Positions 37,040-43,565 of a DNA stretch of 64,000 bases are shown here, one piece after another. The notes under the pieces are model-generated. The model had not been told where the DNA came from. It saw only the letters and a program-made list of their open reading frames with translations, and ran no database searches. The translations under genes were made by a program, and so were the position numbers. The stretch comes from Dictyostelium discoideum (taxonomy: Eukaryota), in the NCBI GenBank assembly GCA_000004695.1, contig CM000153.2:864001-928000 (forward strand). Direction: 5' to 3'. Every line of letters starts with the position of its first letter. The stretch's first letter is position 1.

Positions 37040-37400
37040 AAACAATGTACCCATTTGATAGAATGGAGCTAAACCTATGTTTTGATTTTATAATGGACCT
37101 AAACCTGTGAAAATTGGTTTATACATCTTGTGATCAAGTGAAAGGAGTGGCAAATCTGATGATGTATTTATAGGCTGGTTTAAATTGATCTGGAATTGTT
37201 GATTCACAATCACCACCAAGTGGAACATCTTCAAATTAATTATAATTATTCTTATCATCGGTATTTTTACTATAATTATTGCTATGAATTTTATTATTAT
37301 TATTATTATTATAAATTCATTTTATTGATTTTATATATTTGAGATGCTTATTATTATTATTATTATTATTATTATATCTGCTTGTAATAAAAGAAGTTTT
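37040..37400. repeat. Fragment of an unclassified dispersed repeat (degenerate transposon-like) between cbp copies B and C
   Basis: caaacaatgtacccatttgatagaatggagctaaacct...gtgaaa..ttatacatcttgtgatcaa.tgaaag.a.tgg..aatctgatgatgtattta recurs at 43230-43380 and 40270-40340. The tail ...gctatgaattttat...tttgagatg.ttattatta recurs at 40190-40270. Confidence 0.6.
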
Positions 37401-37405
37401 ACAAG

Positions 37406-37441
<36 letters not shown>

Positions 37442-37730
37442 ATTATTATTATTATTACCATTAACCGATTTAATAAAATTCATCATTCTAGTAAATTTGT
37501 GATAAAATTAAACAATAATTTTATCAATAAAAATAATAATTACATCAAATTACTATTACGATATTAATATTTATTTAAAATTTAATAAAAAAATAAATAA
37601 AAATTAAAAAAAATATAGAATTTGGATTTTGGACAATGGAAATTGAATATTTATTTAATTTTTATTTTTTTGTACCAAATTTAAAAACCTTAAAAAATAA
37701 GATTAATGTGGTATTTTGTCCCAAGAGAAT

Positions 37731-38526
37731 TTAACAAATTGGACCTCTTGCATAAGCCAATCTTTTTTGTTTGAACCACTATAAAAAAAGAATTAAAAAT
37801 AAAAAAAAAACAATTAATACTTTTAAAAGTTGATATTAAAAAAAACAAAAAACAACGTTATAACTTACTTCTTGTAATTCACTTGCGGAAACATATCCAT
37901 CTTTATCCAAATCAATAATTTTAAGAACATAATCAGGGTCAGAGTATGGATTATAGCCCTGTTCTTTAAAGAATTTAACAAATTCTGTTTTGTTTAATTT
38001 TTTATCCTTATCTTAAAAATAAAAAAAAAAAAAAAAAGTTAATTTTAGTATATATATTTAAAATTACGTTAATCTTAATTTTAATAAAGTAAAATATTAT
38101 TATAAAAGATCTTTTTTACCTTTATCAAGTCTTAATAACAATGCTTCGACATCAGCCAATGCAGCAGTCTCAGCATTTTGTTCAATTTGTTTTTTTGCCT
38201 GGTCTGCACAATATTTAGAAATTTCATAATAACTGAATTTACCATCATTGTCCATATCAACTGTTGAACATAAAACACCAGCTGCCTGTGATGCCTTTAA
38301 ACTATCACCATTCATTTCTTTTTTAATATTTTATAATAAAAAAAATGTTAGTATAATTTTATTAATGTCGATATTCTTTTGTTGTGGTTTTTTTCAATAT
38401 TTTACTTTTTAAAAATGATTGATATATTTCAGATGAAGTTACACTGTAATCCTTATTTAAGTCATAATCTTGGATAAAATTTTGAATATCTTGAAAAATT
38501 TTACTATTATCACCACAAGTGCTCAT
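37731..38526 (-). CDS. Cbp-like 4-EF-hand protein, copy C. Divergent, with substituted EF-loop residues and a shortened C-terminal exon.
   Basis: Spliced protein: [40 protein letters not shown] / ..[66 protein letters not shown] / [48 protein letters not shown] / [15 protein letters not shown]. The loop-6 Gly of EF1 is Tyr, EF4 has Cys to Tyr, and the last exon lacks about 5 residues relative to A, B and D. Confidence 0.7.
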
Positions 38527-39289
38527 TGTAATTTTAAAAATATGTAAATTTTTACTACTTTGTACAAAAATAAAAGAGAATTTGAATAATAAAATTTTAA
38601 TTTCAAAATATTAGTCTTTTTATACTTTTTTTATTGATTTGTGATAATAAAATAATTAATTTATTAAAAAAAAATAATAATAATAATTTTTAGAAACAAT
38701 TTGATTATTTGAAAATTGGGTGTTTACAAATATAACCAACTGTTGATAATGAAGCAAGTTCAGTCATTAAATTTTTTTTTTTTGAAAGTCTGTGTTAAAT
38801 CACAAAAAATCACATTCCCCCACCCCATTTTTTTTAATTTTAATAAATAATAAAAATAAAAATTAGTGGTAAATATTCTGACATAGCCATTTATATTATC
38901 CAACTGTTTATTAATTTTTTTGAAATGTAAAAAAAAAAAAAAAAAAAAAAAAAAATTAAAAATAAAATAATTATTAATTGAACCATTATTGGGGAGATTT
39001 AGAAAATAGTGGGGTTGTAAAAAAACCAATAGAACTTTGCCACAATAATTATTTCCAAAATTAATTTTATTAAAATTATTTATACTCTCAAGAAATCAGT
39101 AAATTATTTTAATCATTCGATTTTAGCGATAACTGTTAACATTTTAAATAGTATAAAATAAAAATTAAAATTTTATTATTTTTAGTTTTTATGATGATTA
39201 GACAATATATTAAAAAAAATTATAATTATAAAAAATAAAATAAATAAATAAAAATTAAAACTGAATAAAATAAATAAAATAAATTATAA

Positions 39290-40560: not shown

Positions 40561-40974
40561 CATAAAAAAAAAAAAAAAAAAATTATTTTTTTATTGTTTT
40601 TATAAGAGAAGTGTATGGGAAAAATCAAACTCTGATGGTTAAAAATGCTGAGAAGTAACAGGATTAAAAAAAAGTTTAACGAGAAAAAAAAAAAAAAAAA
40701 AAATATAATAATATATAATAACAATATAAAATAATAGTAAATTTGTGATAAAATTATACAATAATAATAAATAATATTTACATCAAATTATTATTACGAT
40801 ATTAATATTTATTAACAATGTATTTATTAATATTTATTTTAATTTTTTAATAAAAAAAAAACAAAAAATGATTTTAGATTTTGGATAATGGAAATTGAAT
40901 ATTTATTTAATTTTTTTTTTTTTATGTACCAAACCTTAAAAAAAAGATTAATGTGGTATTATGTCCCAAGTTTT

Positions 40975-41076
40975 TTAACAATGTGGACGGCTTGCATAAT
41001 CAATTCTTTTTTTTTTGAACCACTAAAAAAAGGATTAAAAATAGAAAAAAATAAAAAATTAATACTTTTTATAATT

Positions 41077-41116
<40 letters not shown>

Positions 41117-41779
41117 AATGATATAACTTACTTCTTGTAATTCATTTGCGGAAACACATCCATCTTTATCCAAATCAATAATTTTAAGAACATAATCACG
41201 ATCAGAGTATGGGGTATCTGTTCCTCCTTTGAAGTATTCAACAAATTCTGTTTTGTTTAATTTTCTATCCTTATCTTTTATTATTTATTAAAAAAAAAAA
41301 AAAAGTAAATTTCAATATATTTAAAATCACATTAATCTTATTTTAAATAAAGTATAATATTATTATATAAGATCTATTTTTACCTTTATCAAATCTTAAT
41401 AAAAAAGCTTCAACATCAGCCAATGCAGCAATATCAGCATTTTGTTCAATTAGTTTTTTTGCATTGTCAGCACAATATTTAGCAATTTCATGATAACTGA
41501 ATTTACCATCTTTGTTTATATCAATTGTTGAACATAAAACACCAGTTGCTTTTGATGCCTCATAAGAATTGCCATTCATTTCTTTTTTTAAAATTTAATA
41601 ATAAAAACTGTTAGTATAATTTTATTAATGTCAATAATCTTTTGTAGTGGGTTTTTCAATATTTTACTTTTTAGAAGTGAATAATATATTTCTTGTGAAG
41701 TTAATACGCCATCTTGATTTAAGTCATAACCCTTGGCAAATTTTTGAACTTCTTGATAAATTTCATTATTAGTTAACAT
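40975..41779 (-). CDS. Cbp-like 4-EF-hand calcium-binding protein, copy D. Four exons.
   Basis: Spliced protein: [37 protein letters not shown] / ..[66 protein letters not shown] / [48 protein letters not shown] / [15 protein letters not shown]. Confidence 0.78.
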
Positions 41780-42769
41780 TGTAATATTAAAATATGTAAA
41801 TTTTTACTACAAAAATAAAAAAGAATTTGAATAATAAATTTTAATTTCAAAAAATTAGTCTTTTTATACTTTTTGTTTTACTTTGATAATAAAATAATTT
41901 AATTATTAAAAAAAAATATATATTTTTTTTAATTTTTATCATTATTATTATTAGAAACAAATGATTTGAAAATTGTAATTTTTAATTATTGGGTATTTAC
42001 AAATATAGCCAACTGTTGATAATGAAGCAAATTCACATTAAATATTTTTTTTTAGATGAGTGTTAAATCACAAAAAATCACATTCACTCCCACCTCCACC
42101 CACTTTTTAATTTTTATAAATTAAAAAAAACAACTTTTTACCCACCCAAAGAAGGGTTAATTTATAATTTTCATTATTATTTTTATTATTAAAAACTCAT
42201 TCCTTGTAAAATAATTTTTTTTTTTTTTTTTTTTAATTTTTTTTTTCCCATATACTATTTTTATCTCACCCAATCAAAAAAAAAACTTTTTTTTTTTAAT
42301 AATAATGATTATAAAATAATAAAAAAAAGATTTGTAAGGTGTTTTATAACCCACAGCATGATAATAAAAAAACACTTCATTTGTTTTATTTTCTAATTTG
42401 ACACAAAAAAATTAAAAAAGTAAAAAAAAAAAAAAATAAAAAAAAAAAAACAAGATTTAAATCACCTTTTTTTATTAATAGAATTGAACCATTATTGTGC
42501 AATTAAACTTCATTTTCATTATTACAATTATTAATTTCAAAATTAGTTTTATCAGAAATTATATTTTTAAATTAGTATATTATATATTAATAATTATTCT
42601 CTTTAAATTTTATTAATTTCAGTTTTTATGATGATTCACTCAACAATATATTAAAATACAATTGTCAAGATAAAATTATAATAAAAAAGAAAATAATAAA
42701 TAAATAAAGTCCTTCTAGAGTATACCACTTCCGTTCTAGAGAGTGATTTACTTTTCAAACCAATATTTA

Positions 42770-43565
42770 AAATGGTACCTTTGAATTGACCAACAGACAG
42801 ACAAACAGCTCATCCAATCATTTATAAAATCAATTGGATTCCAATTTTTGAATTGCTTGAATTGATTCGACATCATCTGAACTGAATGTATAGTCTTCTG
42901 ATTAACTTGTTTACAATAATCTGGAATAACCATTTGAACATAATATGATCCTGGTACATGATCTTTTAATGTGGGTATTTACCATTTTCATCTGTGACAA
43001 GATATTCAATTTGGTGACGTAACTAATTTCTACAGAACCTGATAATAATGTTTGACCAATATGGAGTGTTTATACTATGAAACCTGGATTGACGTCAGTT
43101 CCAGTCAATGTTAAACAATATTTACAACTATTATTGACAAAGAGATTATCTACACTGTTGGTTAATGTAATTGATACATCTGATTTACCACGATATCGCT
43201 TTAGGTTTTTCGTGAATTTATCATTGTTATTTGAATCAATACAAACAAATGTACCCATTTGATAGAATGGAGCTAAACCTAAGTTTTAATTATCTAATGG
43301 TCCTAAACCTGTGAAACATTATCTATACATCTTGTGATCAAATGAAAGAAATGGTGAATCTGATGATGTATTTATAGATGACTTTGAATTTCCTTTTTTT
43401 TTTTTTTTTTCCCTTGCTAATTTTACCATATTAATTACAGCCTGCTAATTTTATCATATTATTTTCAGCCTAAAAACAGGTGGTTTGTGTAGGACGAAAC
43501 TAATAAGGCTGCTGTAATTAATATAATAAAATTAGCAAGGGACACATCTTCTCCAAAAGAAATAA
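42770..43565. repeat. Most complete copy of the dispersed repeat family (~800 bp), with short degenerate ORFs (43070-43262) and an inverted-repeat hairpin at about 43415-43535
   Basis: See the matches to 39290-39840, 40040-40560 and 37040-37400. The internal stem is ccttgctaattttaccatattaattacagc ... gctgtaattaatataataaaattagcaagg. Confidence 0.7.

Follow-up and report, generated by a model that had tools for sequence, protein, structure and literature searches.

Does a segment that recurs between tandem paralogues belong to a dispersed repeat family, or was it copied together with the genes beside which it lies? The question is raised by an array of calcium-binding-protein (cbp) genes on chromosome 4 of Dictyostelium discoideum AX4, considered here within a window of 64,000 nucleotides (GenBank assembly GCA_000004695.1, contig CM000153.2, positions 864,001–928,000; coordinates below are those of the window). 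A segment of ~0.9 kb, hereafter X, is present in this array in three copies of one orientation, located upstream of cbpF, cbpG and cbpC, respectively. A first-pass annotation of the window had described it as a dispersed repeat family of ~0.8 kb. The best explanation of the whole is most probably a plainer one, namely three decayed copies of X that were amplified with the cbp genes, plus a separate element with terminal inverted repeats (TIRs) represented by two sequences, e604 and e263. On the whole the locus holds nothing unusual beyond two leads of modest weight, namely the small TIR element and a long hairpin within X.

The array comprises four EF-hand genes encoded on the minus strand, cbpF-like (P0010), cbpF (P0009), cbpG (P0014) and cbpC (P0015); the cbpF product is 100% identical to P0009 and the spliced cbpF-like product equals P0010. 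They are distributed over four head-to-tail units, all on the minus strand: unit 1 (33486–35212) contains the cbpF-like gene and its spacer and is devoid of X; unit 2 (35248–37420) contains the cbpF gene, spacer and a truncated copy of X (copy A); unit 3 (37421–40683) the cbpG gene, spacer and a copy in two pieces (B and C); and unit 4 (40684–43600) the cbpC gene, spacer and the fullest copy (D). Homologies within the window were determined by local BLASTN, with a self-comparison of the array over 33000–44000, since a repeat finder run on 34–52 kb was dominated by low-complexity A/T sequence. A second D. discoideum assembly (L001, GCA_054883475.1) spans 32701–53518 in a single alignment at 99.4% identity and without structural difference.

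All copies of X lie on the minus strand. Four of the five partial copies reported in the first-pass annotation are true homologues, but they amount to three copies, since the segments listed as 39290–39840 and 40040–40560 are parts of one, and the fifth is not X. Copy A (37021–37400) matches copy D in its first part (37021–37173 versus 43224–43377, 87.7% over 154 nt); past 37173 it continues with a GC-richer stretch (~37174–37240) and an AT-rich block (37264–37371). Copy B (39288–39774, the 3' half in minus-strand sense, broken by a 141 bp insert at 39333–39473) and copy C (40038–40582, the 5' half, which contains a decayed hairpin at 40394–40525) are the halves of a single copy separated by a 263 bp insertion at 39775–40037. 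Copy D (42700–43600) carries the orphan gene model DDB_G0283647 and finds its matches in the window at 39288–39332 (93%), 39474–39778 (80.1%, to 42796–43094) and 40070–40582 (75.9%, to 43100–43595). Without its two insertions the unit-3 copy measures 891 bp and can be aligned to copy D (839 bp) from one end to the other. Identity among the blocks is 76–88% overall, far above chance, instead of the near-identity first described, whereas the differing internal deletions noted at the same time, and insertions as well, are evident in the BLASTN alignments. The GC content of the copies is 28–32%, versus 7–15% in neighbouring intergenic DNA.

Over cbp gene, spacer and X alike, the homology between units is unbroken and colinear. 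Units 1 and 2 match over 33729–35199 and 35252–36699 (82.6%, with a period of 1523 bp); units 2 and 3 over 35248–36996 and 37639–39299 (81.9%), and the stretch of copy A that matches copy D, beginning at 37021, follows directly after. Between units 3 and 4 the gene flank (37421–38856 versus 40684–42129, 78.8%) is succeeded by spacer blocks (38923–38991/42416–42497 and 39165–39332/42602–42805) and then by the X blocks (39474–39778/42796–43094 and 40070–40582/43100–43595), in such a way that the identity of X (75.9–80.1%) brackets that of the flanking unit DNA (78.8%).

The same arrangement is found beyond AX4. A search with cbpF retrieved paralogues and orthologues in newly deposited assemblies that bear the names D. 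discoideum, D. cf. discoideum, D. citrinum and D. dimigraforme, two of which, L002 (GCA_054859385.1) and L004 (GCA_054859355.1), are syntenic with the window: an FMN-reductase-like gene and a FAE1-like gene are followed by the cbp array, and the flanks share ~90% identity. Pieces of X occur there upstream of the cbpC orthologue (L002 7752–8159, 85.7%; L004 9047–9562, 85.5%) and isolated modules of the hairpin are situated between later units (L002 11653–11851; L004 15084–15304), with deletion patterns unlike those of AX4. The presence of X in synteny implies that it is older than the split of these lineages and has been decaying in place. In L003, L005, L006 and L007 (D. cf. discoideum, D. citrinum and D. 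dimigraforme) the cbp relatives occupy a different, single-copy locus without X.

The homology being colinear, the divergence equal to that of the flanks and the syntenic positions the same in two assemblies, X was in all likelihood copied with the genes and not inserted later between existing paralogues, as the first-pass annotation had proposed in one of its versions; the notion of a dispersed family of ~0.8 kb finds no support in the same evidence. Copies of X outside the array were found neither in the remaining 57 kb of the window nor in ~125 kb of related loci, and none lies outside the syntenic array in L002–L007. X has no TIRs or long terminal repeats (LTRs) at both ends, its inverted repeat being a foldback inside one end, and no direct repeats or target-site duplications flank any copy. 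The window has no tRNA genes that could attract TRE elements. Dispersal had been argued from a copy near eb1 (48030–48240); this stretch matches nothing in copy D and aligns only with the 263 bp insertion of unit 3, i.e., it belongs to the smaller TIR element, and with it the only evidence for dispersal falls. Judged on the sequence of the window and the related loci, a duplication confined to a single locus, the outcome first held to be at odds with a repeat family, is thus favoured for X, which would represent a co-duplicated part of the cbp tandem unit.

A history compatible with these data can be outlined. X would have lain upstream of an ancestral cbp gene, on the same strand, and would have been copied along with the genes as the cbpC, cbpG and cbpF units arose by unequal crossing-over, as tandem segmental duplications. 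The most recent of these, from cbpF to cbpF-like with the 1.5 kb period, may have had shorter breakpoints that left X out. The copies would then have decayed independently through deletions, small insertions and local rearrangements, and insertion of e263 into the unit-3 copy would have split it in two. The array shares with known tandem segmental duplications that include a co-duplicated spacer or pseudogene the head-to-tail units, the colinear gene-spacer-X homology, the equal divergence of gene flank and X and the deletions that vary by unit; it differs from them in the unequal length of the units (1.5, 2.4 and 3.3 kb) and in some blocks that are non-colinear between units, implying later rearrangement or conversion.

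Several observations weigh against this account. The AT-rich block of ~105 bp shared by copies A and C (37264–37371 versus 40176–40279; 93/108 positions, 86%; score 139 versus a control maximum of 75) is non-colinear, as it lies on opposite sides of the shared block in the two copies. Upstream of cbpF, AX4 has one part of X and L002 and L004 have the complementary part, that with the hairpin. Both features point to rearrangement or conversion between units. Additional copies of X may exist elsewhere in the D. discoideum genome, the comparison covering the window and the related loci; a lack of protein matches says little about a sequence that is mostly non-coding; and both the GC content of X (~30%) and the thug-like hairpin would fit a transposon as its ultimate source. 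The AT-rich block also holds a short inverted repeat of its own (ATGAATTTTAT...ATAAATTCAT).

The mobile element suspected in the region does exist, though it is not X, whose termini and translations bear no transposon signature. The 263 bp insertion in unit 3, e263 (39775–40037; TT/CACGGGAAAAAA...TTTTTTTTTCCCCGTG/TT), and a sequence of 604 bp located between the FMN-reductase-like gene and eb1, e604 (48046–48649; TT/CACCAGAGAAAAAAA...TTTTTTTTCCAGTG/TT), are AT-rich (GC 13.7% and 12.7%, respectively) and are flanked on both sides by TT. The first has no open reading frame (ORF) and the longest in the second encodes 44 aa. The TIRs of e263 are CACGGGAAAAAA at one end and, as reverse complement, CACGGGGAAAAAAAAA at the other; those of e604 are CACCAGAGAAAAAAA and CACTGGAAAAAAAA. 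With the low-complexity filter off, 39794–39956 matches 48065–48225 (78% over 163 nt, expectation value (E) 3e-32) within a wider alignment of 39772–40000 to 48043–48270 (72% over 236 nt), and e263 aligns to both ends of e604 in the manner of an internal-deletion derivative. Empty sites are available for both elements. The e263 site reads GGATT/GAC in the paralogous copy D and GGATT/GAT in L004; in L002 and L004 the corresponding position lacks e604, its flanks join up (...TTATTATT/ATTAGATTTGAGG or ...AATTTATTATT/ATTAGATTTGAGG...) and ~19 bp stand in place of AX4 48036–48649. The target duplication of e604 is of 2 or 5 bp, the TTA-rich context making its length ambiguous. An interpretation of e263 as an intron was rejected, given that neither strand offers GT...AG ends and that TIRs and a TT duplication are present.

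On the basis of the TIRs, the 2 bp duplication, the empty sites and the deletion derivative, e604 and e263 are assigned to the non-autonomous class II elements resembling MITEs (miniature inverted-repeat transposable elements), and by these sequence features they are the only truly mobile sequence here, distinct from X. They share with MITEs of the Tc1/mariner-type (Stowaway-like) the terminal inverted repeats of ~13 nt, the 2 bp direct flanks, the absence of coding capacity, an internally deleted derivative and a presence/absence difference at one site between strains. They differ from them in having TT rather than TA flanks and in the number of copies seen (two in the 64 kb window, none in L002–L007); no autonomous partner or transposase is known for them.

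The second lead is the inverted repeat at one end of X, which the first-pass annotation had recognized correctly. In copy D it forms a long hairpin (43410–43542, minus strand) with outer arms of ~31 bp and an inner stem, the left arm being tandemly duplicated. The predicted fold of 43405–43548 has an energy of -50.6 kcal/mol (z score -8.4) on the plus strand and -55.7 kcal/mol (z -9.6) on the minus strand, and none of 200 shuffled sequences folded as well. In minus-strand sense, most copies display the same layout at the 5' end of X: a T-run, GACATATTATTTCTTTTGGAGAAGATGTGTC, the hairpin of ~135 nt, an A-run and AATTCAAAGTCAT. The minus-strand fold is strongest in copy D and is retained in L002a (z -7.1), L004b (z -6.25, with the palindrome centre deleted) and L004c (z -6.0); it is largely lost in copy C (z -2.6 on the minus and -0.7 on the plus strand) and reduced to z -2.8 in L002b, in which the 3' arm is truncated. 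A match to Rfam MIR2863 (33 bits versus a gathering score of 94) was rejected as that of a generic AT hairpin, and a metagenome scan with the shared 18-mer GGCTGCTGWAATTAATRT gave 114 loci, all of them chance matches without extended similarity.

A diverged relative of the hairpin loop and 3' arm is also found inside the 141 bp insert of copy B (39337–39409 versus 43465–43537, 75% over 73 nt). This insert is bracketed by similar (A)GACAKACAGA strings at 39311–39322 and 39475–39486, at a place where copy D has a single ACAGACAGACA tract, and could be either a local template-switch duplication or the insertion of a second hairpin element.

The hairpin module may be an old relic of a thug-type transposon or else a transcribed precursor of small RNAs. 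The thug-S DNA transposon of D. discoideum yields a hairpin-derived microRNA (miRNA), miRNA_can_D3 (Meier et al., 2016, PMC4894637; Avesson et al., 2012, cited there). Its 3p strand matches 43502–43522 on the minus strand at 18/21 positions, the 5p strand matches 43504–43526 on the plus strand at 18/23, and the 3p strand matches the hairpin relative in the insert of copy B at 17/21. All matches at the thresholds used for this miRNA fall on homologues of the hairpin, and the three hits compare with a mean of 0.15 for shuffled motifs, although the observed count was reached by 1/60 (3p) and 3/60 (5p) of the shuffles and is therefore borderline. Taken with the GC content of X, unlike that of intergenic DNA, these similarities suggest as a tentative possibility that X descends as a relic from an old thug-type DNA transposon, or from a thug-derived hairpin module with adjacent sequence, which would have inserted upstream of a single ancestral cbp gene and then been passively amplified by the tandem duplications; such a reading concerns the origin of X alone. 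Both thug-S and the hairpin of X involve long AT-rich hairpins. Against a thug origin, only ~21–23 nt of thug-S, those of the mature miRNAs, enter the comparison, the two miRNA-like arms stand in the reverse of the published 5p/3p order, none of the published AX4 positions of miRNA_can_D3 is on chromosome 4 (PMC4894637), and X translations match no thug-related protein. A thug-type origin of the hairpin is thus put forward as a lead, not as demonstrated membership.

Start sites of primary miRNA transcripts in D. discoideum are described as a G after a T-rich stretch of at most 26 nt, with < -0.2 kcal/mol/nt as the criterion for a hairpin (Liao et al., 2018, PMC6161686). In copy D, 26 consecutive T precede a G (43571–43597, minus strand), a motif that lies 29 nt upstream of the hairpin and is found in most homologous copies, and the fold of -55.7 kcal/mol over 144 nt corresponds to -0.39 kcal/mol/nt. 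The order of T-rich tract and G, stable hairpin and A-rich tract downstream resembles that of intergenic loci such as mir-1176 and mir-1177; the hairpin of X differs from these in being known from its sequence alone and in that its arms are absent from the miRNA hairpins in the supplement to the same study (PMC6161686). It is likewise not identical to any miRNA listed by Meier et al. (2016, PMC4894637).

The pattern of variation can be read in both directions. Across six hairpin copies 96% of the cells are paired versus 28–47% when the partners are slid, the fold persists in D, L002a, L004c and L004b (z -6 to -9.6), and the 5' arm is near-invariant (2/24 variable columns) compared with the 3' arm (9/24). 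Pairs of the G:U type favour the minus strand (20 cells in 10 columns versus 4 A.C cells), a count biased by the prediction of the structure on that strand. On the other hand, covariation is limited to one compensatory pair and its measures were reached by 150/500 shuffles, which is not significant, and the fold has been largely lost from copies C and L002b. T-runs before start sites are, besides, common in Dictyostelium promoters generally. It is unlikely, as far as these comparisons go, that the module is a functional miRNA-like precursor transcribed by RNA polymerase II from the cbp-sense strand, selected and co-amplified with the cbp genes.

The two ideas can be joined, such that the modules would be conserved, transcribed thug-S-derived miRNA-like precursors amplified with cbpC, cbpG and cbpF and kept under selection, and e604/e263 would be the first MITE family of D. 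discoideum with documented insertion polymorphism; taken as a whole this combination is distinctly unlikely.

X could alternatively be a gene. Copy D carries an annotated hypothetical protein, DDB_G0283647 (XP_638937.1, Q54QT6), modelled on the minus strand with exon 1 at ~43437–43457 and exon 2 at ~43070–43276, and two annotations independently place a gene here (P0008, 75 aa, XP_638937.1; P0001, 142 aa). The short reading frame assigned earlier to the fullest copy, MKPGLTSV..., is present on the plus strand at 43077–43262 and the paralogues are frameshifted, as stated; the longest open stretches (52–76 codons) and the annotated model are nevertheless on the minus strand. Open stretches of this length in an AT-rich genome, together with exon-like GC, speak for a species-specific gene duplicated with cbp, decayed or, in copy D, still functional. 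The only intact frame among the copies of X is a stretch of 62 codons in copy D, which the predictors annotated as DDB_G0283647, and exon 1 of that model is located inside the hairpin. A reconstructed minus-strand translation of 206 aa matched only models of the same locus among 5.8 billion clustered proteins. HMMER with P0001 against 1.84 billion representatives retrieved a Logan ORF of the same locus plus weak matches to bacterial repeat proteins (E 1e-6 to 7e-4), mostly with DUF11, CARDB or SdrD-type domains, which were rejected as repeat-summed matches of beta-strand composition. Pfam gave no match to X translations, and a composite of 1776 aa (every remaining frame plus hairpin, inserts and 48 kb copy) gave none at E<=1. 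The X body of L002 and L004 is devoid of ORFs of at least 50 aa, those touching X spanning the hairpin and A-run of L004b, and differences between paralogues lack codon periodicity (16/30/25, p=0.12). Such a gene is hence quite improbable: a functional protein from X appears to be without support, nor do the translations suggest a protein-level link to a known transposon, and DDB_G0283647 is probably a non-gene. The earlier view of X as neither simple sequence nor coding is upheld to the extent that evidence of a present coding function is lacking. In the new assemblies, automatic models join 'exons' derived from X with cbpC or with ORFs upstream (L002 8065–9137; L004 6569–9554); these fused models and the start of DDB_G0283647 inside the hairpin (window 43070–43457) are probably annotation artefacts.

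Finally, it is very improbable that X is a true interspersed transposable-element family, inserted independently beside each cbp paralogue or mediating the unequal crossing-over, because the GC content well above that of intergenic DNA, the strong hairpin at one end with arms like a thug-S-derived miRNA and the differing internal deletions typical of decaying elements are outweighed by the continuous gene-spacer-X homology of each unit, the equal divergence of X and flank, the occupancy of the same positions in other strains, the want of TIRs at both ends, of target-site duplications and of protein homologues elsewhere, the distinct identity of the sole 'dispersed' copy near eb1 and the lack of a further copy in the rest of the window and in the related loci.

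Other features of the region deserve mention in addition to the co-duplicated X. In L002 (4142–7644) and L004 (5594–9047) a block of 3.2–3.5 kb that is missing in AX4 (~43666–43951 of the window) lies between the FAE1-like gene and X and encodes ORFs of 101 aa (L002 5690–5995, with a signal-peptide-like start) and 261 aa (L004 6703–7488); an extra partial copy of X occurs beyond this block in L004 (5576–5850). A motif of ~60 nt (GAAAAATCAAAC..AAAAATGYTGAGAAGTAACAGSATTAAA) is shared at 83% between 33253–33316, just below unit 1, and 40619–40678, between copy C and unit 4, and is 91–93% conserved at L002 13975–14030, L004 17416–17470 and L004 19400–19455; in the window it falls within a stretch of 27–32% GC without ORF (33120–33400), and Rfam gave no match. 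Another long foldback is located at 32268–32458 (-45.7 kcal/mol, z -5.8), with arms composed of AATATTGATTTGGTCCCCACAT plus a T-run and of an A-run plus ATGTGGAGACCAAATCAATATT and a partial arm copy at ~32040–32060; it may represent a further small element of hairpin or MITE-like type. The window contains a second tandem duplication, of two minus-strand genes ~95% identical (54296–56852 and 57967–60542), each with an ORF of 570 aa and an upstream ORF of 200–232 aa, in which tyrosinase/haemocyanin-like motifs were judged by eye. In L007 (11504–19938, D. cf. discoideum) the cbp relative adjoins a tyrosine-recombinase ORF (Phage_integrase, DIRS-like) and an ORF with reverse transcriptase, RNaseH and integrase domains (LTR retrotransposon), with no homologue of X or of the hairpin.

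For the annotation of the D. discoideum genome, these results remove a false lead, as the window holds no new dispersed repeat family of 0.8 kb, and they provide a worked history of the cbpC/cbpG/cbpF/cbpF-like array in terms of nested duplications with different periods. If e604/e263 prove to be multi-copy, the little-understood DNA transposons of this genome would gain a MITE-type element with a presence/absence difference between assemblies. Should the hairpin yield small RNAs, a thug-type hairpin would be tied to calcium-binding-protein genes under developmental regulation, upstream of which its position is conserved, and, were the joint interpretation of both leads true, a transposon-derived small-RNA gene family would reside inside a calcium-binding-protein gene array.

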